Of a DNA stretch of 29,375 nucleotides, positions 759-26,142 are shown in pieces. The notes under the pieces were generated by a model that was not told the origin of the DNA, did no database searches, and saw only the letters and a program-made list of their open reading frames with translations. The stretch is taken from IMG/VR virus record IMGVR_UViG_2563366852_000005, one strand, 5' to 3'. This DNA is from a virus. Its lineage: Duplodnaviria; Heunggongvirae; Uroviricota; Caudoviricetes. The position numbers and the translations under genes are program-made. Within the stretch, counting starts at the first letter, position 1. Every line of letters begins with the position of its first letter.

Positions 759-1922
759 TCACTCATCATCTTCTGTTTCGTACTCCACATCAGAAAGCCT
801 GACCTCAAGCTCTAAGGACGTCGTGAAGCCGCTATTATTCAGAAAATGTGTCACCTTAGTGATTGTCCAGTCCTGCTCGTCTATGACGCGCTTAAAGCCT
901 GACACTTTAACCGGTGTTTCCGTGTAAATATCTGCCCGACCGGTAGCCAGGCTGATGGAGAACTCCGCCACACCCCGTTGCAGTTTATCCCACTTCGCCT
1001 GGGCGGCACGCATGGCCTGTGCTTTCGTGGCATATACCGTGGTCAGGGCAAAAACGTTGTCAGCCTCACCGGCCATGTATTCACCTTCGCGCGCTTCCGG
1101 TACTTTTGGCGCTTTCTTCTGCGTGACTGGTTTCGCTTTCGGGTGCTCCAGTGCGCGCAGGTGTTTCTCTTTCTTTTTGCGTTTCAGTTTTACCTTCTGC
1201 TTTTGCGGCTTCGGGTCTTTGGTGTGTAACCACTTTGCCGTTACGCCGGTATAGGCTCCACGGTCAGCAATCGCAAAATGATGGCGGTCGCCGTCGCTGC
1301 GGGTTATGGTAATCTGCGGGATTTTCTTACCGCTGGCCGTCACCCCCTGCCCCGCCTTAAGAAATAACAGTTTTCCCATTTTTACCGACACCTCACCGCC
1401 GTTGCGTTCAGCAAGGCGGGTCAGGAATTTTGCATCAGACTCCTGCGACTGGTCGATGTGCGGGATTTTAATTCCGGCCAGTGACGGAGCAACACTGGCT
1501 TCCAGCTTGTTACGGGAGGCTATCGCCTCAACAATCGTACCGAGCGTGGTGTCATGCCAGGAGCCTTCCCGGCGGGAATTGAGCGTCCCGCGAAAATCTG
1601 CACTCCGGGCGCGGATGGTGACCACATCCGGCGCGCCCCGGTGTTCTACCTCATCAACGGTAAATTTCCCTTTGCATACCAGGGCAAAACCTTTCCAGCC
1701 GATATACACCGTCAGGACAGCGCCACGAATCGGCAGCTCGACCTGCCCGTCGGCATCGTTCAGTTCAATATCAAGCTGGTCAGCCTCAAAGCCCCGGTTA
1801 TCCGTCAGAGTCATGCTCATCAGACGGTCGCTGATATTGCCGGAAATATCCCTGCTGTCGAGCATCAGCATGTAATCCGGCGTCAGCGTACTGCCTGCAT
1901 CAAATGTCAGCGCATCCAGCAT
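759..1922 (-). CDS. D: Tail protein D (P2 gpD)
   Basis: 387 aa ORF in the conserved P2 position downstream of U; N-terminus MLDALTFDAGSTLTPDYMLMLDSRDISG as in P2 gpD. Confidence 0.9.
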   Translation of the reverse strand: MLDALTFDAGSTLTPDYMLMLDSRDISGNISDRLMSMTLTDNRGFEADQLDIELNDADGQVELPIRGAVLTVYIGWKGFALVCKGKFTVDEVEHRGAPDVVTIRARSADFRGTLNSRREGSWHDTTLGTIVEAIASRNKLEASVAPSLAGIKIPHIDQSQESDAKFLTRLAERNGGEVSVKMGKLLFLKAGQGVTASGKKIPQITITRSDGDRHHFAIADRGAYTGVTAKWLHTKDPKPQKQKVKLKRKKKEKHLRALEHPKAKPVTQKKAPKVPEAREGEYMAGEADNVFALTTVYATKAQAMRAAQAKWDKLQRGVAEFSISLATGRADIYTETPVKVSGFKRVIDEQDWTITKVTHFLNNSGFTTSLELEVRLSDVEYETEDDE

Positions 1923-16352: not shown

Positions 16353-17090
16353 TTAACTGGCTTTCTTTTTCGGGCGTCCACGTTTTGCCGGTGTCGCACT
16401 CCGGGTCTTACGCGGGGCGCGGGTGGCCGCTTTTGGCTCCGGCTTCGGTTTCAGCTCCCGCTCCAGTCGTTCAATCTCTTTTTTGACGCCTGCCTGACAG
16501 TCGAGCTGTGTCGCACGTTGCAGGTGCGCCAGCGCCCCTGCGGCATCACCAGCGTCACGCAGAAACAGACCGGTGATTTTGTGCAGCTTTGCGCGCACTT
16601 CATCAGGCATGTCAGCCGTGGCGGTCAGTTCGAGGGTGTCCGTCAGCAGGCGGGGATCCACAGACTCACCGGCAGCGTGGGCGCGCATGGCCGCGAGCGC
16701 CACCTCCTCGGTGAACATGTACGGCGGGGTGCGGCGGTGTTTACCCGGCATGGTCAGACCATACTTCAGGGCATAACGTGCAATCTCCAGCGCACCGGCA
16801 ATATCGCCGGTATCCAGACGCCACAGCATGACCGTCATCAGAATGTCATCCTGTGCACCTTTGCCCTGCTCCAGTACTCCGTTCACCCACGGCAACCAGA
16901 ACGGCAGCAGTTCGCGTTTTTTCGCGGCCTTAAGCTCTTTTGAATAAATCGCTTTCAGTGTGCGCTGGTCTGCGGCGAGCTTAACCAGCATCTGCTCATA
17001 GACAGTTGCATGTCGCAGCGGGGCGGCTTCCCGCTGCGCGGTTATCGCTGCCGAGACCCGCATCATGTGGCGCTGTGCGGGACTCGTCAT
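16353..17090 (-). CDS. M: Terminase small (endonuclease) subunit M
   Basis: 245 aa MTSPAQRHMMRVSAA...; basic C-terminus. Confidence 0.92.
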   Translation of the reverse strand: MTSPAQRHMMRVSAAITAQREAAPLRHATVYEQMLVKLAADQRTLKAIYSKELKAAKKRELLPFWLPWVNGVLEQGKGAQDDILMTVMLWRLDTGDIAGALEIARYALKYGLTMPGKHRRTPPYMFTEEVALAAMRAHAAGESVDPRLLTDTLELTATADMPDEVRAKLHKITGLFLRDAGDAAGALAHLQRATQLDCQAGVKKEIERLERELKPKPEPKAATRAPRKTRSATPAKRGRPKKKAS

Positions 17091-17093
17091 CGG

Positions 17094-18167
17094 TTACGCT
17101 CCCGGCTCTGCGGTCGCTTTAGCCGGTGTGGAGAAATCACCGACCTTAATTTTTTCCACCAGACAACCGGCGGCGTAGTCTTCCACCACGTAATCAATGT
17201 TCATTGACTCGTAGTTCTCCACGCGGTCGAGTTTCGGGTTTTCCTCAATCACGCGGCGATGGCTGTCATCCATGTAGTAGATGGACAGGTTTTCCAGCTT
17301 CGTGATGAGCATCGCATCCGCCGGGAAGTACGGGACGCGTACCGCTGGCAGGTTACCGATGCGTTTCTGACTGATGATGACGTCAGCGGCCAGCATCTCG
17401 CTGTTGTCCTGCTCCTTGTTAACGATGGGGAAATACTTGTCCGCCAGTAGCTGACGCCCCACAATCACCACAAGGTCAGGGTCTTCCTGATACCACGGCT
17501 CAATCAGGTTGTTGGTCGCATCCATCACCAGTGCATCGAGGCTGGCATAATCACCGCCCTTACCCACGCGGATGACCTCAGAGGTCGTGTGACCTTCCTC
17601 GTCAGTGACCTTGCTCATCACGCGCGCCGGGGCTTCATTGCGGTATTTCTGCAGCCAGCCGACCGCCACATCCTGCAGCATCGGATTACTGTTGCGGTCA
17701 GAGGTTTCGGCACGCTTCACGCCGTTAAAACCGGCCATGATGAAATCAAGGGACTGGCGTTTGATAATGGCGTTACGGATACGGAGCTGGAAATCCTGAT
17801 AACGCGCCCACAGGTCAAGCGTTTTGTAGCGGATATAAAAATCGAAGTTAATCTGGTCGCATTCGTACTTGTTTGACGCCAGCTTCGAAAAATCCTTCGG
17901 CTGACGCTCGGTGCCACCGGCGGTGTCGGTGGTGCTGGCGATGGAGCCGGTGACACCGATGCCAATTTTTTCCCCTTTCATTTCGCTGACCGGCACAATG
18001 TTGATGCGGGTCAGGAAATCAGAGGACTCCTGCATGGTGTTCATCAGGGTCTGGGTGACCGACGGTTCAACGGTGAATTTTTTCGACACATCACCGGCGT
18101 CGATGCCGTTCAGTTCGGCAACACGTGACAGGTAGGCATTAAATTTAAAGCGGGTTTCCTGGCGCAT
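17094..18167 (-). CDS. N: Major capsid protein N
   Basis: 357 aa MRQETRFKFNAYLSRVAELNG... Confidence 0.94.
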   Translation of the reverse strand: MRQETRFKFNAYLSRVAELNGIDAGDVSKKFTVEPSVTQTLMNTMQESSDFLTRINIVPVSEMKGEKIGIGVTGSIASTTDTAGGTERQPKDFSKLASNKYECDQINFDFYIRYKTLDLWARYQDFQLRIRNAIIKRQSLDFIMAGFNGVKRAETSDRNSNPMLQDVAVGWLQKYRNEAPARVMSKVTDEEGHTTSEVIRVGKGGDYASLDALVMDATNNLIEPWYQEDPDLVVIVGRQLLADKYFPIVNKEQDNSEMLAADVIISQKRIGNLPAVRVPYFPADAMLITKLENLSIYYMDDSHRRVIEENPKLDRVENYESMNIDYVVEDYAAGCLVEKIKVGDFSTPAKATAEPGA

Positions 18168-18225: not shown

Positions 18226-19080
18226 TCAGCAGTTCGTCATCAGGGCGTCACCGCCACCGCCGGTGGCTTTACTGCGGCGCTGCTGGGTCAGACTTTCGGT
18301 GTGGTCGAGACTGTTTTTCAGTCGGGTGAATGCCTGGCTGGTTTCATCTGCCCTGTCAGTCACCTCCTGCTTAAGTGAGGAAAAGGCGGTTTCCATCTCA
18401 GCGAGGCGCTGCTCAGTGGCGCTCAGTTTTTCCTGCACATGTTCAGCGACAGCGGTCACCGCTTCATGCACGTCATTCAGACGGGCGTCATCGCTGGCCT
18501 GTTTGCGGCCAAAAATGGATTTCACCTTTTCGGTCAGGGCGGTGAACACGGTTTCAGGCAGGTCTTCAAATTCCAGCTCAACAGGCGTTGCCACTGAAAT
18601 CAGGTTTTCAGGGCTTAATTTGAAGCGGTTCAGGGGGTTGTGTTTTGCCGTGCGGCAGAATTCCAGGTATTCCGTGCCGAGGCTTGCCGGGTCATCGGTG
18701 ACGGCCAGCCCCACCAGATAACATTTGCCGGTGTTGGCAAAGTTCGGCTGAATTTCCATTGAGGTATAGACCTTCTGCGCGGCCTTGTTCATCGCGATAA
18801 GGTCATCGGTCGGGGTGATTTTCGCAAACAGCGCCCATTTGCCTTTCAGCGCCGAATCATCGTCAATCTTTTCGGCCTTCAGTTCGACCACATCGCCATA
18901 ACGCTTAAAAATACCGTCAGGCAGGATGCCGCGCAGATGTTCCAGGTTAATGCGGCAACCATAGACTCGCGGGTCAAAGGTTTCGGCCATTTCCTGAATA
19001 TCCTGCGCACTGATGACACGCCCGTCACAGGTGTCACCCTCAACGCCGATACGAAAGAATTTTGAGACTTTTTTTGCCAT
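18226..19080 (-). CDS. O: Capsid scaffolding protein O (284 aa)
   Basis: MAKKVSKFFRIGVEGDTCDGRVISAQD...; start at MAKKV matches P2 gpO length; ORF-track N-terminal extension rejected. Confidence 0.92.
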   Translation of the reverse strand: MAKKVSKFFRIGVEGDTCDGRVISAQDIQEMAETFDPRVYGCRINLEHLRGILPDGIFKRYGDVVELKAEKIDDDSALKGKWALFAKITPTDDLIAMNKAAQKVYTSMEIQPNFANTGKCYLVGLAVTDDPASLGTEYLEFCRTAKHNPLNRFKLSPENLISVATPVELEFEDLPETVFTALTEKVKSIFGRKQASDDARLNDVHEAVTAVAEHVQEKLSATEQRLAEMETAFSSLKQEVTDRADETSQAFTRLKNSLDHTESLTQQRRSKATGGGGDALMTNC

Positions 19081-19253
19081 TGTCAGGAGTCCTGAATAGT
19101 GATTAGAGGAGTCACATGTCGACATCAGTTTCCCGACGATGCGCATCCTCCGCCATCAGTCCCGGATGGCTTATCACTGACACAACAGCACCTTAGCGAA
19201 TCGCGGGGCGCGACTCAGTAGCCTTGCCGTGTATTCATCACGGCGAGGTATTC
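19081..19253. promoter_or_regulatory. Divergent late promoter region between O and P; contains palindrome ATGTCGACAT (19116..19125) and dyad GTGA-N9-TCAC (19099..19115)
   Basis: Position between divergent late operons; inverted repeats read directly; exact Ogr-box assignment not possible by eye. Confidence 0.45.
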
Positions 19254-21026
19254 ATGACCATCACCACAGACACCACTCTTTTACACGACCCGCGTCGTCA
19301 GGCGGCGCTGCTGTACTGGCAGGGATTTTCCGTGCCGCAGATTGCCGCCATGTTGCAGATGAAACGCCCGACGGTGCAGAGCTGGAAACAGCGCGACGGC
19401 TGGGACAGCGTTGCCCCCATCAGCCGTGTCGAAATGAGTCTGGAAGCGCGACTGACCCAGCTCATTATCAAACCGCAGAAAACCGGCGGTGACTTCAAGG
19501 AAATTGACCTGCTGGGACGCCAGATTGAACGACTGGCGCGGGTCAACCGCTACAGTCAGACCGGCAACGAGGCAGACCTTAATCCGAACGTCGCTAACCG
19601 CAACAAAGGCGGGCGTCGCAAACCGAAAAAGAATTTTTTCAGTGACGAGGCCATCGAAAAGCTGGAGCAGATTTTCTTTGAGCAGTCTTTCGACTATCAG
19701 TTGCACTGGTATCGCGCCGGGCTTGAGCACCGCATCCGCGATATCCTGAAATCCCGCCAGATTGGCGCAACGTTTTATTTTTCCCGCGAGGCGCTGCTGC
19801 GCGCCCTGAAAACCGGCCATAACCAGATTTTTCTGTCGGCCAGTAAAACGCAGGCGTATGTGTTCCGCGAATACATCATCGCCTTTGCCCGTCTGGTTGA
19901 CGTTGACCTGACCGGTGACCCGATTGTCCTGGGCAATAACGGCGCAAAACTGATTTTTCTCGGCACCAACTCCAACACCGCGCAGAGCCATAACGGCGAC
20001 CTGTACGTCGACGAGATTTTCTGGATCCCGAATTTTCAGGTACTGCGTAAGGTGGCATCAGGTATGGCCTCACAGAGCCACCTGCGCTCGACCTATTTCT
20101 CCACCCCGTCCACGCTGGCGCACGACGCCTACCCGTTCTGGTCGGGTGAACTGTTCAACCGGGGACGCGCCAGCGCCGCCGAACGCGTGGAAATCGACGT
20201 CAGTCATAACGCCCTTGCCGGAGGTCTTCTCTGTGCGGACGGCCAGTGGCGGCAGATTGTCACCATTGAGGACGCCCTGAAAGGTGGCTGCACGCTGTTC
20301 GACATTGAGCAGCTTAAACGCGAAAACAGCGCCGACGATTTTAAAAACCTGTTCATGTGTGAATTTGTTGACGACAAGGCATCGGTGTTCCCGTTCGAGG
20401 AGCTGCAACGCTGCATGGTCGACACGCTGGAAGAATGGGAAGACTATGCACCCTTTGCCGCCAATCCGTTCGGCTCCCGCCCGGTATGGATTGGTTACGA
20501 CCCGTCACACCGTGGCGACAGCGCCGGATGCGTGGTGCTGGCACCGCCGGTGGTGGCCGGTGGCAAATTCAGAATACTTGAGCGTCACCAGTGGAAAGGC
20601 ATGGACTTTGCCACCCAGGCTGAATCCATCCGCAAACTCACCGAAAAATACAACGTCGAATACATCGGAATTGATGCCACCGGCCTCGGTGTCGGCGTGT
20701 TCCAGCTCGTGCGCTCGTTCTATCCCGCCGCGCGCGATATCCGCTACACACCGGAAATGAAAACCGCAATGGTGCTCAAGGCAAAAGACGTTATCCGCCG
20801 TGGCTGTCTGGAATATGACGTCAGCGCCACCGACATCACCAGCTCGTTTATGGCTATCCGAAAGACCATGACCAGCAGCGGACGCAGCGCCACCTATGAG
20901 GCCAGTCGCAGCGAGGAAGCCAGCCACGCCGACCTCGCCTGGGCGACCATGCACGCCCTGTTAAATGAGCCACTCACCGCCGGTATCAGCACCCCGCTGA
21001 CATCCACCATTCTGGAGTTTTACTGA
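19254..21026 (+). CDS. P: Terminase large (ATPase) subunit P (590 aa)
   Basis: MTITTDTTLLHDPRRQAALLYWQGFSVPQIAAMLQ...; ORF-track start at 19224 is a TTG upstream extension. Confidence 0.93.
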   Translation: MTITTDTTLLHDPRRQAALLYWQGFSVPQIAAMLQMKRPTVQSWKQRDGWDSVAPISRVEMSLEARLTQLIIKPQKTGGDFKEIDLLGRQIERLARVNRYSQTGNEADLNPNVANRNKGGRRKPKKNFFSDEAIEKLEQIFFEQSFDYQLHWYRAGLEHRIRDILKSRQIGATFYFSREALLRALKTGHNQIFLSASKTQAYVFREYIIAFARLVDVDLTGDPIVLGNNGAKLIFLGTNSNTAQSHNGDLYVDEIFWIPNFQVLRKVASGMASQSHLRSTYFSTPSTLAHDAYPFWSGELFNRGRASAAERVEIDVSHNALAGGLLCADGQWRQIVTIEDALKGGCTLFDIEQLKRENSADDFKNLFMCEFVDDKASVFPFEELQRCMVDTLEEWEDYAPFAANPFGSRPVWIGYDPSHRGDSAGCVVLAPPVVAGGKFRILERHQWKGMDFATQAESIRKLTEKYNVEYIGIDATGLGVGVFQLVRSFYPAARDIRYTPEMKTAMVLKAKDVIRRGCLEYDVSATDITSSFMAIRKTMTSSGRSATYEASRSEEASHADLAWATMHALLNEPLTAGISTPLTSTILEFY

Positions 21027-22060
21027 TGAGCAAGAAAAAAGGGAAAACACCTCGACCTGCGGCAAAAACAATCACCGCCAGCGCCCCGAAAATGGAAGCA
21101 TTCACCTTTGGCGAGCCGGTGCCGGTACTCGACCGCCGTGACATTCTGGATTACGTCGAATGTATCAGTAACGGCAGATGGTATGAGCCGCCGGTCAGCT
21201 TTACCGGTCTGGCAAAAAGCCTGCGTGCTGCCGTGCATCACAGCTCACCGATTTACGTCAAACGTAATATTCTGGCCTCGACATTTATCCCGCATCCGTG
21301 GCTTTCCCAGCAGGATTTCAGCCGCTTTGTGCTGGATTTTCTGGTCTTCGGTAATGCGTTTCTGGAAAAGCGATACAGCACCACCGGTAAGGTCATCAGA
21401 CTGGAAACCTCACCGGCAAAATATACCCGCCGTGGCGTGGAGGAGGATGTTTACTGGTGGGTGCCGTCCTTCAACGAACCGACACCTTTCGCGCCCGGCT
21501 CCGTGTTTCACCTGCTGGAGCCGGATATTAATCAGGAGCTGTACGGCCTGCCGGAATATCTCAGCGCCCTTAACTCTGCCTGGCTGAATGAGTCGGCCAC
21601 ACTGTTCCGCCGCAAGTATTACGAAAACGGCGCACATGCCGGATATATCATGTATATCACCGACGCATTGCAGGATCGCGATTACATTGACTCACTTCGC
21701 GAAAACATGGCCAAGTCGAAAGGACGCAATAACTTTAATAATCTGTTTCTCTATGCCCCACAGGGAAAGCCAGACGGCATCAAAATTATCCCGCTCAGTG
21801 AAGTGGCGACAAAGGACGATTTTTTTAATATCAAAAAATCCAGCGCCGCTGACCTACTGGACGCGCACCGCATCCCCTTTCAGTTGATGGGTGGCAAGCC
21901 GGAGAACGTCGGGTCGCTGGGTGATATTGAGAAAGTGGCAAAGGTCTTTGTCCGCAATGAGCTTATCCCGTTACAGGACAGGATCCGAGAGATAAACGGC
22001 TGGCTCGGTCAGGAGGTCATCCGCTTTAAAAACTACTCACTGGACACTGACAACGGCTGA
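21026..22060 (+). CDS. Q: Portal protein Q (344 aa)
   Basis: MSKKKGKTPRPAAKT...MEAFTFGEPVPVLDRRDILDYVECISNGRWYEPP...; TGATG overlap with P. Confidence 0.94.
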   Translation: MSKKKGKTPRPAAKTITASAPKMEAFTFGEPVPVLDRRDILDYVECISNGRWYEPPVSFTGLAKSLRAAVHHSSPIYVKRNILASTFIPHPWLSQQDFSRFVLDFLVFGNAFLEKRYSTTGKVIRLETSPAKYTRRGVEEDVYWWVPSFNEPTPFAPGSVFHLLEPDINQELYGLPEYLSALNSAWLNESATLFRRKYYENGAHAGYIMYITDALQDRDYIDSLRENMAKSKGRNNFNNLFLYAPQGKPDGIKIIPLSEVATKDDFFNIKKSSAADLLDAHRIPFQLMGGKPENVGSLGDIEKVAKVFVRNELIPLQDRIREINGWLGQEVIRFKNYSLDTDNG

Positions 22061-22065
22061 ACATC

Positions 22066-22087
22066 GCCGCCTGCGGGCGGCTTTTTT
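22066..22087 (+). terminator. Intrinsic terminator after Q (GCCGCC-tgcg-GGCGGC then TTTTTT)
   Basis: Perfect 6-bp GC stem, 4-nt loop and six T immediately after the Q stop. Confidence 0.85.
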
Positions 22088-22229
22088 ACACCCCGTCATC
22101 ACGCCCTCACACGCTCACCACAGCACAAAACAGCCCGCAGACACAGCAACGCCCCAGCGCACAATCTAAACGCCATCACGACGCGCTCAGACACTGAAAA
22201 AATAAAATCAGCACCACCGCCAGCGCGCA

Positions 22230-22248
22230 GTGCTTTCCCCGCCTCGCC
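22230..22248. other. cos: cos site: 19-nt cohesive-end sequence GTGCTTTCCCCGCCTCGCC (reverse complement of the P2 cos GGCGAGGCGGGGAAAGCAC)
   Basis: Exact match to the P2 cohesive-end sequence as recalled from memory; located between Q and the old-side cargo as in P2. Confidence 0.75.
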
Positions 22249-22376
22249 TGCCCGCTTTATGGGTCGATTTTAATGCAAGTGCACGAACACACTGGAGACG
22301 CACCAGTACTGGCGGTGGTCACGTAGATCCGCCCCTTAAAAGCCATGCAGAATAATGCAACTATTGCGGGCGTCGG

Positions 22377-22796
22377 CTAATCATCTTCTAAAGGTGGAAT
22401 TTTGATGCCACTAATTAGCAGTACTTTCCGGTATGCCTCAAAAATAATGTTGTGTGTTTTTTGTAAATCATCGAGCATTTTTTGCCGTCCTGCTGGGGTA
22501 TCTTTGGCGAAATTATGAGCGCGAAAAAAATCATGTGCCAAGTAGTTTCGAGCTGATAGAGCCAGTTCTACATGTTGTAGCGTTTCATCATCTGCCACCC
22601 CTTTTTTACGCAATAAATTGCTTAGTCTGCCTAATGTTAACTTATCAAATTTTAAGAATTTTTCTTTTAATGTTGGAATGTCTTCGCCTTGCTTCATTTC
22701 ATGTTCGATAAGGACATTAATCAGTTCAACTTCCAACAATTGTGCAGCTTCTGAGGTGTAACCGAACTTCCAAAAGACTTCATCAAGCGTTGCCAT
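22377..22796 (-). CDS. Hypothetical small alpha-helical protein with an HEPN-type R-N-x3-H motif (RNYLAH); candidate RNase toxin or abortive-infection effector in the tin/old cargo slot
   Basis: 139 aa from ATG at 22796 (ORF-track start 22805 is GTG); GAGTGG Shine-Dalgarno-like element upstream; about 35% GC versus about 52% for the phage backbone; motif read from translation. Confidence 0.6.
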   Translation of the reverse strand: MATLDEVFWKFGYTSEAAQLLEVELINVLIEHEMKQGEDIPTLKEKFLKFDKLTLGRLSNLLRKKGVADDETLQHVELALSARNYLAHDFFRAHNFAKDTPAGRQKMLDDLQKTHNIIFEAYRKVLLISGIKIPPLEDD

Positions 22797-22933
22797 GTGT
22801 TCCACTCAAGATAAATGCAGGTTATGAAAAAGAAGAATGATGATGGAAATTCCAGATGAAGTCTAACGCCTCGCTCCGCTCGTTGTTCAACCCCGCCAGC
22901 CCTGAAAACAAGTTTCACGACTGGCGGCGTTCT
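22797..22933 (-). promoter_or_regulatory. Putative own promoter/leader region for the AT-rich HEPN-like gene
   Basis: 137-nt non-coding gap with a GC-rich to AT-rich transition upstream of the ORF; no clear consensus -35/-10 assignable by eye. Confidence 0.3.
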
Positions 22934-23140
22934 CTATCGTCTGCGTGGTGGTGGCGTAACTCTTGATTGACCGATATGGTTAAACCGCCCGTAATTATCC
23001 CGGACTATTTCGGCACACACGACCAGCTCATCGGGCGTCAGATTTTCGTTGACCATAATCCGCTGTAAACGCTGAACAATAGCCATCAGCTTGATATTTT
23101 TAGTTTTATGGTGCGGTATCTCGCCTGGTATTCTGTGCAT
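22934..23140 (-). CDS. Small hypothetical protein (68 aa), translationally coupled to the upstream ASCH-like gene (TAATG overlap)
   Basis: ATG at 23138..23140 overlaps the TAA of the upstream gene; helical-looking sequence MHRIPGEIPHHKTKNIKLMAIVQRLQRIMVNENLTPDELVV... Confidence 0.4.
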   Translation of the reverse strand: MHRIPGEIPHHKTKNIKLMAIVQRLQRIMVNENLTPDELVVCAEIVRDNYGRFNHIGQSRVTPPPRRR

Positions 23141-23592
23141 TATCCAAGCCACCCGTTTTGCTGTGCACGCTCCATCTGTTCATCTGAATAGTTCCATGCT
23201 CCATCCGTGGCAACCATTGCCCCGCCAGACATCCCCGTCTCTGGTTCATACATAACAGCAAGGCCGAGCTGATGCATAATTTCATGATTAATTCTGAATA
23301 CCAGACCACGCTCACTAAGTTCTTTCCAGTTCACAATCTCATATGCGCCTGTATTAAGCCGCTCAATACTTAGCAAGACATAATCTTCCAGCCAGTCTGA
23401 CAGGTCAGTAACATCTGTTATCCGGGCTTCAACCTTTCGCCCCGTATACACACCCTGCACCCATTCATGCAAAATCAACGTGTCCCCGCGCTCATAATTA
23501 CGGTCATTTTTCCGAAACTCTGCACGTTTATGTCCTTCCAGCACAAGGTCGAAATATTTTGCGTGCAGCTTTACCTCGTGAATTTTTGCCAT
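23140..23592 (-). CDS. ASCH/PUA-like (DUF3850-like) domain protein with a C-terminal HEIMH (HExxH) motif, translationally coupled to A
   Basis: 150 aa from ATG at 23590..23592 overlapping the A stop (TAATG); N-terminal pattern KIHEVKLHAKYFDLVLEGHKRAEFRKNDRNYERGDTLILHEW...YTGR resembles ASCH-like phage proteins; C-terminal INHEIMHQLG. Confidence 0.6.
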   Translation of the reverse strand: MAKIHEVKLHAKYFDLVLEGHKRAEFRKNDRNYERGDTLILHEWVQGVYTGRKVEARITDVTDLSDWLEDYVLLSIERLNTGAYEIVNWKELSERGLVFRINHEIMHQLGLAVMYEPETGMSGGAMVATDGAWNYSDEQMERAQQNGWLG

Positions 23593-25877
23593 TATGTCCA
23601 CTCCATTACTGTTGAGAATCCCGGCCACTCATCAGCGACCGGATACGTGAATTTTTTCCCGTCGTAATTTACGGTTGCCCCACGCGCCAGCGCCTCAAGC
23701 TCCCATCGCTGAGGCCTGATACCGTTCTGAGCAAGGTCAACACGGATACGGGTAATTTGCATTCTTTCCGACCGGGTCAGTCTGGCCGATGGTGCAATTT
23801 CATGCGGTTTTAACGGGCTTCCGTTTCTTTGCTGACGATTTGGTGTTCTCATGTCGTGTTTTAATGCGCCCCTGAGCGCCCTCACGACCTCCTGGTCATT
23901 CCATTCGATAACACCGTCATCAACCAGATTAAGCACTGCTGCGGCGTGTTCAGAAGGTGTGGGAGCCGGTAACGAAGCATCACCGCCGGTGAACTTTCCA
24001 CAGTTATTGACAGGACTCCGAGGCGCGGCGATGCCGCTTTTTAAAGTCAAAGGCTCAACGACCGGAACTTTCGGCACAATGCGCCAGTCCGTCGTTCTGG
24101 TGATATGAATATGTCGCGCGCCGAGATGCGGCGCGTAAATGCCGACCACTCTCTCGACTTCTTCTTCGTACTCGTTAACGTCTTCCGACGGGCTACGGGC
24201 AACCCTGACAGTCTGACAATCGCGCGGGACATTTGCCCCACCCTGCGCGCTGATATACAACGCAAAATCACCACTGTCTGCGGCGGCGCGTGCAGCCTCG
24301 ACGCGCTCGTCAAACTCATCAGCAATGCTGACGCCGCGAGGCAATTTGCGTAGTTCACGGTAAGCCCCCATTGTCGGCAGACCAACCGTTTTAAATTGCG
24401 GAATGCGCCACGTTGACGCCCATGCGGTAACAGCCGCAGCAGTGTCTTTCAGCGGCCTGCCGGTATCGTTATCGAGCTGACCATCCAGTGCATAGCCGTC
24501 GATGTTTTTTGAGATGTATTTCGCGATATACCCCGCAGCACCGCCCCGGTTAAGGTGTTTTGCCTGAAAACGGTTTCGCGCGGCTCCTCTTTCGTCGCCA
24601 TCCTCTTTGAGCGCGTAGCGACGCATGATTTCGATAATCTGGTTACGCTGGCGTGGATTACAAAAAAGCATCATATGCCAGTGCGGCGTTCCGTCGTGGT
24701 GTGGTTCAACAACACGCAAACCGTAGGCCTGTAAATCATTATCCTTGAATGCCGTGCGCATCAGGCTCCAGATACGGCAGAGATAACGCTGCGCATCCTT
24801 TGGATTAAATGCCTCATCGTTCCAGCCGTGATTTAGCTGGACGGTTTTACTTTCGCCTTTTCTGACCTGACGTGTCGGGTGATACTTTGACGGCGCGGTA
24901 AGCGTGATAAACATCCCCACATCACCCTCTGCGGCGGCGTAACGCTCAATACCGGCGATGGTGTTCATCAGCTCCATCCGGCGAATTTCTGGATTTGAAA
25001 TACTGCCCATCACCTTACTGATAAGGTCGATGCGCTCGCCGGTTTCCTTGTTTTCAAGGTCACACGATTTAAGAAATTCCAGATTTGCCTGGCGGCGTGC
25101 ACGTACATCACGAATGGCATGTTTACTGGCATAAGGAGAACGGTCTTTATTGACCTCCCCGACAGCAATCAGTAACGCCTCATGCCAGCGCATGCGCTGG
25201 CCTTTGAGCTGATGAGTCCACCACTCATCGTTAAACAGACGGGCAATGGCAGAATACGCCTGCCTCGTGGTCATCTGTCCTTTACGGTATTTTTTCCAGT
25301 AGAGCGGGGAAATATTGAAAGCACGTGCAGCGCCAGCAACATGACCATACAGGTGAGCCTGCGCCTCATCCGTAAACAGCGATTCTTTTTCGCCATGCGC
25401 ATCCACCCAGGCATCGCTGAGTTCCTCATACATCATGAAAAGCTGCGATGAGATACGGGCGGCAAACTTTTTCAGCTCTTTGTCATTCATTCCAGGCAGG
25501 CGCGCATAGTGGTCACGCTCTGCCAGAAACAGCAACGACGCGTCGGTGTTCATTTCATGGCGCTGATTCACACGCTCAATGCGCGGCCATAAACGACGCT
25601 GAAAAGTGGATGTGAGGAAATAAAACCCGTGCACCGGGCTTTTATTGCGCCGGATGTAGTCATAGCGTGAAGTAAACAGCGAGCGCAAAAAGTAAGGCAG
25701 GCGGTTAATCGTGGATAAAACACCTTGCACCTGACGCATCTCGTCACGTGTAAGGGGTCTTTCGCGCCCGACAGCCTCGCGTGGCGCGTTCCATGCATAA
25801 GCACCGGTAAACGCCTTACCGGTGCCTGCGGCAAATGCTGACGGAGGGACAAAACGCCCGGAGGCTTTAACGGCCAT
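23592..25877 (-). CDS. A: Replication initiation protein A (rolling-circle nickase, 761 aa)
   Basis: MAVKASGRFVPPSAFAAGTGK...; start chosen to match P2 gpA length; ORF-track start at 25919 is an upstream extension. Confidence 0.93.
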   Translation of the reverse strand: MAVKASGRFVPPSAFAAGTGKAFTGAYAWNAPREAVGRERPLTRDEMRQVQGVLSTINRLPYFLRSLFTSRYDYIRRNKSPVHGFYFLTSTFQRRLWPRIERVNQRHEMNTDASLLFLAERDHYARLPGMNDKELKKFAARISSQLFMMYEELSDAWVDAHGEKESLFTDEAQAHLYGHVAGAARAFNISPLYWKKYRKGQMTTRQAYSAIARLFNDEWWTHQLKGQRMRWHEALLIAVGEVNKDRSPYASKHAIRDVRARRQANLEFLKSCDLENKETGERIDLISKVMGSISNPEIRRMELMNTIAGIERYAAAEGDVGMFITLTAPSKYHPTRQVRKGESKTVQLNHGWNDEAFNPKDAQRYLCRIWSLMRTAFKDNDLQAYGLRVVEPHHDGTPHWHMMLFCNPRQRNQIIEIMRRYALKEDGDERGAARNRFQAKHLNRGGAAGYIAKYISKNIDGYALDGQLDNDTGRPLKDTAAAVTAWASTWRIPQFKTVGLPTMGAYRELRKLPRGVSIADEFDERVEAARAAADSGDFALYISAQGGANVPRDCQTVRVARSPSEDVNEYEEEVERVVGIYAPHLGARHIHITRTTDWRIVPKVPVVEPLTLKSGIAAPRSPVNNCGKFTGGDASLPAPTPSEHAAAVLNLVDDGVIEWNDQEVVRALRGALKHDMRTPNRQQRNGSPLKPHEIAPSARLTRSERMQITRIRVDLAQNGIRPQRWELEALARGATVNYDGKKFTYPVADEWPGFSTVMEWT

Positions 25878-26142
25878 ATGAGCCAAAAGCCTCTGAGCAA
25901 CGCTTGCTGAGTTGCTCAACCTGCGCGTTTAAATCAGCAAAAGACTTTGCGCTTCCGGTCAGAATATCGTGATGCATCAGGCCGGAAACGAGCTGGCTTA
26001 ATTTCGGGTAATAACCAACCACCGCCAGCCATTCCTGACCGGCGTTTTTACCGCTTTCCGCTCTCTTTTTCTCGTGGAGAATAAACTGAAAGCTGTCACT
26101 GGTAACGACATAACGTTCGCCAATTTCAATACGAATACTCAT
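25867..26142 (-). CDS. P2 orf83-like hypothetical early protein
   Basis: 91 aa immediately upstream of A, overlapping its start; conserved early-operon position. Confidence 0.75.
   Translation of the reverse strand: MSIRIEIGERYVVTSDSFQFILHEKKRAESGKNAGQEWLAVVGYYPKLSQLVSGLMHHDILTGSAKSFADLNAQVEQLSKRCSEAFGSYGR

Follow-up and report, generated by a model that had tools for sequence, protein, structure and literature searches.

The 29,375-nucleotide (nt) stretch of viral DNA considered here (IMG/VR record IMGVR_UViG_2563366852_000005; Caudoviricetes), called the window below, contains a cohesive-end site (cos) of the kind known from phage P2. A P2-type (Peduoviridae) prophage has its cos site here, formed, to judge from the sequence, by the segment 22222-22284 and the ATGCA repeats at 22345-22371. 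To the left of the cohesive end lies a C- and A-rich tract (22088-22229) that fills the interval between cos and tQ, the terminator of the portal gene Q. We consider it probable that the whole is best read as a P2-type cos in which the C/A tract is a non-essential tQ-cos spacer with a likely role on a single strand. The cos site itself is already known: it is an ordinary P2 cos in a common prophage type.

Cohesive end and cut geometry

The cohesive end occupies one short segment of the window, whose plus strand corresponds to the P2 minus strand.

22230-22248, unstranded: 19-bp cohesive-end sequence (exact match to annotated P2 cosL and cosR).

The plus-strand letters of this segment are GTGCTTTCCCCGCCTCGCC and their reverse complement is GGCGAGGCGGGGAAAGCAC. 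The latter is identical to nt 1-19 of AF063097.1, labelled ‘cosL; left cohesive end’ in that record, to the last 19 nt of the same record (cosR, 33575-33593) and to the first 19 nt of P4. The minus strand of 22230-22248 thus carries a P2-type 19-nt cohesive end that matches both P2 cosL and the P4 left end, and the first-pass annotation, which had taken the segment for the reverse complement of the P2 cohesive end, was right in sequence, position and orientation. An exact 19-mer has a chance expectation of about 2e-7 (29 kb, both strands; arithmetic). When 21950-22450 was compared by blastn with a phage collection, position 22248 fell opposite position 1 of P2 and likewise of L-413C, Wphi, fiAA91-ss and many others. 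Alignment with the P2 and 186 cos regions, proposed earlier as a check, bears out the assignment: the P2 19-mer is identical and that of 186 differs at two positions (GGCGTGGCGGGGAAAGCAT).

By homology, the phage terminase (gpM plus gpP, both encoded in the window) would nick the plus strand between 22229 and 22230 and the minus strand between 22248 and 22249, and the products of both nicks would be 19-nt 5′ cohesive ends, GGCGAGGCGGGGAAAGCAC. These predicted cut positions are taken from the annotations of 186 and PSP3.

Conserved core and right arm

Position-specific conservation was examined in a four-way alignment of the window with the circularised junctions of P2, 186 and P4, and in 80 loci from other species gathered via their portal protein (67-96% identity). 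It was read from an ungapped stack of 69 loci and from a MAFFT alignment of 73 sequences that included P2, 186 and P4. Four features emerge.

22222-22276, unstranded: cos core of about 55 bp, comprising (A)GCGCGCA, the 19-mer and then TGCCCGCTTTATGGGTCGATTTTAATGC (four-way alignment).
22249-22284, unstranded: right-arm piece of the conserved core, ending in the imperfect palindrome ATGCAAGTGCA (high information content).
22300-22317, unstranded: palindrome GCACCAGTACTGGCGGTG, consensus GCGCCAGnnCTGGCGC (alignment).
22345-22371, unstranded: ATGCA direct repeats, at 22345-22349 and 22355-22359 (alignment).

The window, P2, 186 and P4 all have GCGCGC(A/G)(A/G), the 19-mer and (T/C)GCCCgCTTnnnGGGnCGnTTTTAATGCA, and 22222-22276 agrees with the P2/P4 ‘55-bp core’ of Ziermann & Calendar (1990), as cited in passages of PMC5694545 and PMC9594776. 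With at most 14 substitutions allowed, the core occurs in 69 of the 80 loci within 2.5 kb downstream of the portal gene, and columns are nearly invariant between -8 and about +57, counted from the first base of the 19-mer (22222-22284 in the window). It was not found in the other 11 portal-anchored loci within downstream DNA of at most 2.5 kb, shorter at contig ends (L015, L024, L044, L048, L056, L058, L069, L071, L074, L075 and L084); the reason may be a larger insertion, divergence of cos or the end of a contig. HP1, K139, phiO18P and phiE202 are not comparable, either because their cos is not beside the portal gene or because the record does not start at cos.

Over 57 positions the right arm of the window matches 186 at 48 and P4 at 40. 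P2 shares the right-arm core up to TTTTAATGCA and also the ATGCA repeats; beyond about +40 rightwards the window is closer to 186 and P4 than to P2, and the CCAG..CTGG palindrome is present in the window and not in P2. Many loci have its consensus GCGCCAGnnCTGGCGC at +70..+85, as do 186 and P4; P2 itself lacks it. P4 (NC_001609) has the identical 19-mer, the upstream GCGCGC, about 30-40 bp of right arm, the palindrome and the ATGCA repeats. These repeats, spaced 10-11 bp apart and followed by TGCATGC, are among the best-conserved columns near cos: the consensus CATGCAAAnnnCATGCAcc..TGCATGC is kept at +114..+145 in nearly all loci, P2 and P4 included. In the window a degenerate third copy follows them, TTGCGGGC instead of TTGCATGC.

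The conservation expected of a terminase site thus falls on the 19-mer and rightwards of it, outside the side on which the 22088-22229 tract lies. The ATGCA repeats appear to be better candidates for terminase recognition than the C/A tract, and the interval 22088-22248 takes in just the left third of the functional cos region.

A strand-biased spacer between tQ and cos

The tract left of the cohesive end stands out by its composition.

22088-22229, plus strand: C/A-rich tQ-cos spacer, homologous to P2 nt 20-159 (composition, alignment).

Its first base directly follows the T-run of the tQ hairpin (22066-22081), and it shares 87% identity with P2, 72% with 186 and none with P4. The 142 nt comprise A49 C60 G22 T11, or 76.8% C+A, which is the highest value among all 142-nt segments of the window (mean 0.505, standard deviation 0.053; about 4.9 standard deviations above); no 142-nt segment of the opposite strand of the 29-kb window is equally skewed. 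The largest 78-nt excess of C over G on either strand starts at 22089 (38 C, 11 G). An earlier description of the tract as almost entirely C and A therefore holds for the exceptional plus-strand skew and overstates its purity, since 33 of the 142 bases are G or T. The runner-up skewed stretch, at 1086-1227 (71% G+T on the plus strand), is coding, lies within a 387-amino-acid open reading frame (ORF; 759-1922, minus strand) and is unrelated to cos.

Relatives were compared in 46 compact loci, the window among them, in which 149-230 bp separate the portal stop codon from the 19-mer; together with P2 and 186 they form a set of 48 sequences for composition. The 48 tracts average 131 nt (A38 C52 G24 T17), with C+A of 0.57-0.77. 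In their central spacer of about 56 nt, median pairwise identity is 0.41 versus 0.31 expected for random sequence of the same composition, C+A averages 0.72 (range 0.58-0.84) and the commonest difference is an exchange of A and C. In these loci the variable DNA adjoining cos on its right is at 0.54 C+A, with equal C and G. The composition of the tract is kept, strand-specifically, while its sequence drifts. Conservation of strand composition without conservation of sequence argues for a role played by a single strand.

The skew could instead be functionless, a relic of ancestry or of a local strand mutational bias in the non-coding tQ-cos spacer. The whole window does have a mild bias of C over G on its plus strand (C 8211, G 7376), loss or replacement of the spacer occurs, and an Aeromonas relative is less skewed (C+A 0.56). 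We nevertheless regard this explanation as improbable. The spacer is near saturation in identity, yet all 48 sequences hold their C+A within the range given above; the commonest changes, A-C transversions, are those that preserve the skew; variable non-coding DNA on the right of cos is unskewed; and the window as a whole has fewer A than T, opposite to the tract.

A single strand might also be read as DNA. The G/T-rich strand could serve as a RecA-pairing or Chi-like island that affects RecBCD and recombination, or the skew could reflect rolling-circle strand asymmetry. The conservation of strand composition rather than sequence would suit such a role, and Rousset et al. speculate that recombination at cos ends drives adjacent hotspots (PMC9122126). 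It is nonetheless very improbable, as exact Chi is absent from both strands of 46 tracts and one-mismatch Chi variants on the G/T-rich strand are not enriched (21 versus 15.9 +/- 4.0 in shuffles). Reasoning from polarity, the G/T-rich strand is 5′-ended at the left end, which is the wrong Chi orientation for RecBCD entering there. No replication element is known at the tract; the P2 replication origin lies inside gene A.

A structured or known RNA was considered for the tract and excluded by an Rfam scan and by folding. The scan of 21500-23000 (E<=1) returned no RNA family. The minimum free energy (MFE) of the tract RNA is -15.8 kcal/mol, versus a mean of -47 and a maximum of -18.2 for segments whose G+C is 0.55 or higher, and its fold z-score of -0.08 against dinucleotide shuffles gives no indication of a structured RNA.

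Terminase recognition and the left arm

The first-pass annotation also proposed that the tract may be part of the terminase recognition region. As an essential part of that region it is not supported, given P4, loci with insertions, retrons and the right-arm conservation described above. Judged from elements that share the same core and do without it, the C/A tract is not essential for terminase recognition; a non-essential accessory role is possible, given the motifs that it holds at fixed positions.

P4 is packaged by the P2 terminase and the cos signal is common to both (PMC9122126). Its alignment with the window reaches no more than about 8 bp to the left of the 19-mer and about 30-40 bp to its right. 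P4 has no C/A-rich tract: its left arm (A43 C27 G28 T44; 49% C+A) is unalignable to that of the window and matches it at 74 of 142 positions, where shuffled sequences give a mean of 70.7 and a maximum of 78. In 24 of the related loci, Q and cos are separated by 0.4-2.3 kb of inserted cargo. At least 10 of these 24 insertion loci resemble the tract no further left than -8, and beyond that point their DNA is unrelated and often A/T-rich. The retrons Ec67 and Ec86 are described in a passage of PMC6868368, citing Dodd & Egan (1996), as replacing about 180 bp from cos to the packaging-gene terminator; this is the tQ-cos tract interval. A cosB of the lambda type would be expected to be conserved in, and needed by, every DNA served by the same terminase; the tract is absent from P4 and from at least 10 of the 24 insertion loci, which keep the core, and gives way to the retrons.

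Some observations weigh against dispensability. The tract is present in the isolated phages FSL SP-004, Midge, EtG, PSP3, 186 and P2, and none of the isolated plaque-forming P2/186-type phages inspected is without it. Because all inspected isolates keep the tract, the case that complete phages can dispense with it rests on uncharacterised prophages and on P4. In vB_EcoM-613R3 a gene has been inserted and the tract, lying behind it, adjoins cos; the tract is absent from a Klebsiella record that derives from a prophage.

Within the tract, short motifs recur at set distances from the 19-mer.

22106-22112, plus strand: CTCACAC, the -124 copy of a CTCAGAC-type motif (motif scan).
22136-22142, plus strand: CGCAGAC, a further CTCAGAC-type copy, at -94 (motif scan).
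22186-22192, plus strand: CTCAGAC, the -44 copy, inside the conserved island CACGACGCGCTCAGAC (motif scan).
22197-22208, unstranded: A/T block AAAAAATAAAAT, 12 bp, lying 22-33 bp left of the plus-strand nick (alignment).
22212-22218, plus strand: CACCACC (conserved island).

Repeats are one mark of a lambda-type cosB. Candidates here are the CTCAGAC-type 7-mers: the window has them at -44, -94 and -124, most compact relatives at -44 and -123. The -123 (+/-2) motif, with at most one mismatch, is present in most compact loci and always on the plus strand; CTCAGAC at -44 (+/-1) is present in most compact and some insertion loci and has the top information content within the tract. Positions -30..-21 are 88% A/T in the 46 compact loci and 70% in the 24 insertion loci. 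The runs of A and T in this block swap strand between lineages, which makes it a feature of the duplex. CTCAGAC at -44/-123, the A/T block at -30..-21 and CACCACC may add non-essential help to cos function.

Such an arrangement raises the possibility of a cosB-like accessory arm, in which gpM, the helix-turn-helix (HTH)-bearing gpP or a host bending protein binds the CTCAGAC repeats and the A/T block. The arm would hold the left, Q-proximal end for packaging initiation, as an aid to efficiency that is not indispensable. The fixed nick distances (-44 and -123, with -94 in the P2 group) and single orientation of the motifs favour it, as do the A/T block, a nearly constant spacer length (109-134 nt) and the HTH at the N-terminus of the large terminase subunit in the window. 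In cargo loci the surviving tract always stays next to cos and never next to Q, and P4 cosmids are transduced better with longer cos flanks (PMC9594776). We still think it unlikely that this accounts for the tract. P4 is packaged by the P2 terminase without a homologous left arm, similarity stops at -8 in the insertion loci counted above, and retrons replace the tract interval. The tract is conserved mostly as strand composition, which a duplex-binding protein would not need, and the strongest position-specific conservation is on the right arm. Helical A/T periodicity, too, is weak once relatedness is controlled.

That periodicity, of 10-11 bp as expected of DNA wrapping, was strong in 48 pooled relatives and weak on 16 representatives with less than 55% identity, and the idea was dropped. 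A leftward intrinsic terminator (22226-22211 plus T-run) was also rejected, as neither the strand nor the sequence of the A/T block is constant from lineage to lineage. A reading of the sequence brought up no convincing IHF consensus.

The low-G+C cargo in the 24 insertion loci (of 69 related) marks a second insertion site, on the Q side of cos. The loci are L011, L014, L027, L028, L038, L041, L042, L047, L051, L057, L062, L063, L065-L068, L070, L076, L078-L081, L083 and L085. Seven inserted ORFs were scanned against Pfam, and four had no match. L041 carries a glycosyltransferase-2 and a pentapeptide-repeat protein, L063 a 718-amino-acid protein with a SEC-C motif, and L014 a weak C39-like peptidase match (E 3e-4, below the Pfam curated cutoff). 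The records of L006, L011 and L063 (portal 72-96% identical) are titled Bacillota metagenome-assembled genome, Vagococcus sp. and Chryseobacterium sp., odd host labels that probably reflect assembly contamination or mis-binning.

A possible Rho-loading insulator

Of the roles open to a single strand, one acting through RNA seems the most likely. We tentatively propose that the C/A tract is a putative Rho-loading (rut-like) back-up terminator or insulator behind tQ. Transcripts of the late P-Q operon that read through tQ would carry the tract as untranslated, unstructured, C-rich and G-poor RNA. This RNA would load Rho, which would then end the transcript at or before cos, and strong late transcription would be kept off the packaging site and off the convergent genes beyond it.

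Published criteria for rut sites are a length of at least 70-80 nt, more C than G, lack of structure and a hairpin downstream within 150 nt (PMC6407284). The plus-strand tract RNA has 42% C and 15% G. Its best 78 nt contain 36-38 C versus 10-11 G with the C-spacing pattern present, and their C/G ratio is the top of the window on either strand, at about the 99th percentile of background. Across the 46 compact loci the median of the best 78-nt ratio is 3.08, and 42 of them reach at least 2, where the 95th and 99th percentiles of background are 2.13 and 3.0. Structure is low over the 142 nt, as the MFE given above indicates. A G+C-rich hairpin at which Rho-dependent pausing could occur, GCCCGCTTTATGGGT at 22250-22264, lies within 150 nt; it belongs to the conserved cos core, and its match to the rut pattern may be coincidental. 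The tract lies 3′ of the Q stop codon on the sense strand, where it would be untranslated, and also behind tQ.

The orientation of neighbouring genes is consistent with this proposal. Where the neighbour reads towards cos, the tract is kept in 42 of 46 compact loci and in 4 of 6 insertion loci; where it reads away, the tract is present in 2 of 18 insertion loci (versus 4 of 6 towards; Fisher p=0.018). The P4 neighbour, gop, is oriented away from cos. Loci of the Enterobacter type keep the C-rich tract although no T-run follows the hairpin behind their portal gene. In seven loci of this type (L013, L018-L021, L030 and L053), within the first ~40 nt after the portal stop codon, an A-run precedes the hairpin and no T-run comes after it, so that it seems suited to ending transcripts that arrive from cos rather than those of the portal operon.

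Several points speak against a Rho-loading role. The tract stands behind a strong intrinsic terminator, and only read-through RNA would contain it. The rut criteria are unspecific: RhoTermPredict gives 23,930 predictions in Escherichia coli K-12 (PMC6407284). The marked depletion of T (8%) is not required by Rho, which needs more C than G. The link with neighbour orientation is confounded by ancestry, and minus-strand cassettes, arriving with a promoter region of their own, may just have displaced the tract. The fixed length and the motifs at fixed positions suggest a duplex, protein-binding role. In 186 and P4, transcripts nearing cos from the other side meet no comparable tract; 186 has the terminator t95b on that side.

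In common with known rut sites such as lambda tR1 and trp t′, the window tract is at least 78 nt long, C-rich and G-poor (C/G 2.7-3.5), and its RNA would be unstructured and untranslated, with a G+C-rich hairpin within 150 nt. Unlike them, the tract lies behind an intrinsic terminator, is strongly T-depleted and holds fixed duplex-like motifs. On balance, P2/186-type phages may keep this element of about 130 nt by selection on strand composition, with a Rho-loading insulator the most plausible reason, and we put this forward with the same reserve.

Comparison with other cos regions

The P2 cos has the same 19-mer in the same place, after Q and tQ, and the P2 left arm is itself 66-67% C+A in window orientation. 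Past cos, P2 carries old and tin as cargo, and the window has a 142-amino-acid ORF on the other strand. 186 and PSP3 follow the same plan, with the tW hairpin, a C/A-rich spacer of about 140 bp (66% C+A), an A/T block, the core and the ATGCA repeats; their CTCAGAC motifs stand at -45 and -123. The 186 spacer is just 72% identical to the window tract, and the A/T block is T-rich or mixed in 186 and PSP3 and A-rich in the window.

The lambda cos (cosQ-cosN-cosB) has no homology with that of the window and is likewise a nicking site with flanking accessory DNA, a bend-prone or A/T element and repeated motifs. By this analogy, the repeated short motifs beside the P2-type nick could be terminase sites. 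The overhangs are 12 nt in lambda and 19 nt in the P2 type. Unlike in lambda, the strongest conservation here is on the arm away from the head genes, and the candidate cosB-side arm is dispensable in relatives of the window. P2 reportedly packages monomeric circles, an observation attributed to Pruss and Calendar.

Genome context

The gene order around the site is Q, tQ, C/A tract, cos, variable region and A, the same as in P2 and 186. The cos site thus lies between the portal gene, with its terminator, and the variable region beside gene A, and the cognate terminase subunits gpM and gpP are encoded on the same element (Pfam).

16353-17090, minus strand: small terminase subunit gpM (Pfam Phage_term_smal).
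17094-18167, minus strand: capsid protein, P2-type (Pfam).
18226-19146, minus strand: scaffold gpO (Pfam).
19224-21026, plus strand: large terminase subunit gpP, with N-terminal HTH (Pfam Terminase_6N/6C/Terminase_5).
21026-22060, plus strand: portal protein, P2 gpQ homologue, transcribed towards cos (ORF list; Pfam Phage_portal, E 4e-14).
22064-22087, plus strand: tQ intrinsic terminator, hairpin GCCGCCTGCGGGCGGC (22066-22081) and a T6 run (terminator scan).
23592-25919, minus strand: replication protein gpA (Pfam).

P2-group phages share 93-97% identity with the DNA adjacent to the portal gene. Q occupies 187-1221 on the minus strand of the P2 record, and the P2 counterpart of the terminator, at 160-181, is annotated ‘tQ; putative rho-independent terminator for P operon’. 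RefSeq has no annotation from the portal gene to the first gene past cos. Similar DNA was found in 1709 of 5426 complete E. coli genomes. The HTH of the large terminase subunit spans residues 22-79 (Pfam Terminase_5 and HTH_23), and with it this subunit may itself contribute to the recognition of cos sequence.

On the far side, cos is adjoined by the 142-amino-acid ORF mentioned above (22377-22805, minus strand), which reads towards cos, has 29-40% G+C and gave no Pfam match. The cos-proximal locus has been described as an anti-phage defence hotspot of P2-like phages (PMC9122126), and the ORF sits within it; at the homologous position in E. coli 06-3462 (L091), RefSeq has a 139-amino-acid hypothetical protein. 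Between this ORF and gene A, a 162-amino-acid protein (23140-23628, minus strand) has DUF3850/ASCH and DUF7415 domains.

Implications

The cos assignment confirms a P2-type prophage with an apparently intact packaging site, which is routine, and the position of cos marks where the virion left end meets the variable (defence-hotspot) region beside it. The interest of the whole is low, and the modest residual question is the tract, a small question in a classic system and one that concerns P2 and 186 as well, as the C/A spacer is their own feature; no published explanation for it was found in the literature. The composition of the C/A tract is a real, conserved trait, and the guess with most support as to its role is a rut-like insulator. 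If it is a Rho insulator, this would explain why cargo reading away from cos replaces the tract and cargo reading towards cos tends to keep it. Rho, the target of P4 Psu, would then be a hidden participant in organising the P2 packaging region, with relevance to the design of P2/P4 cosmids and engineered transducing particles.

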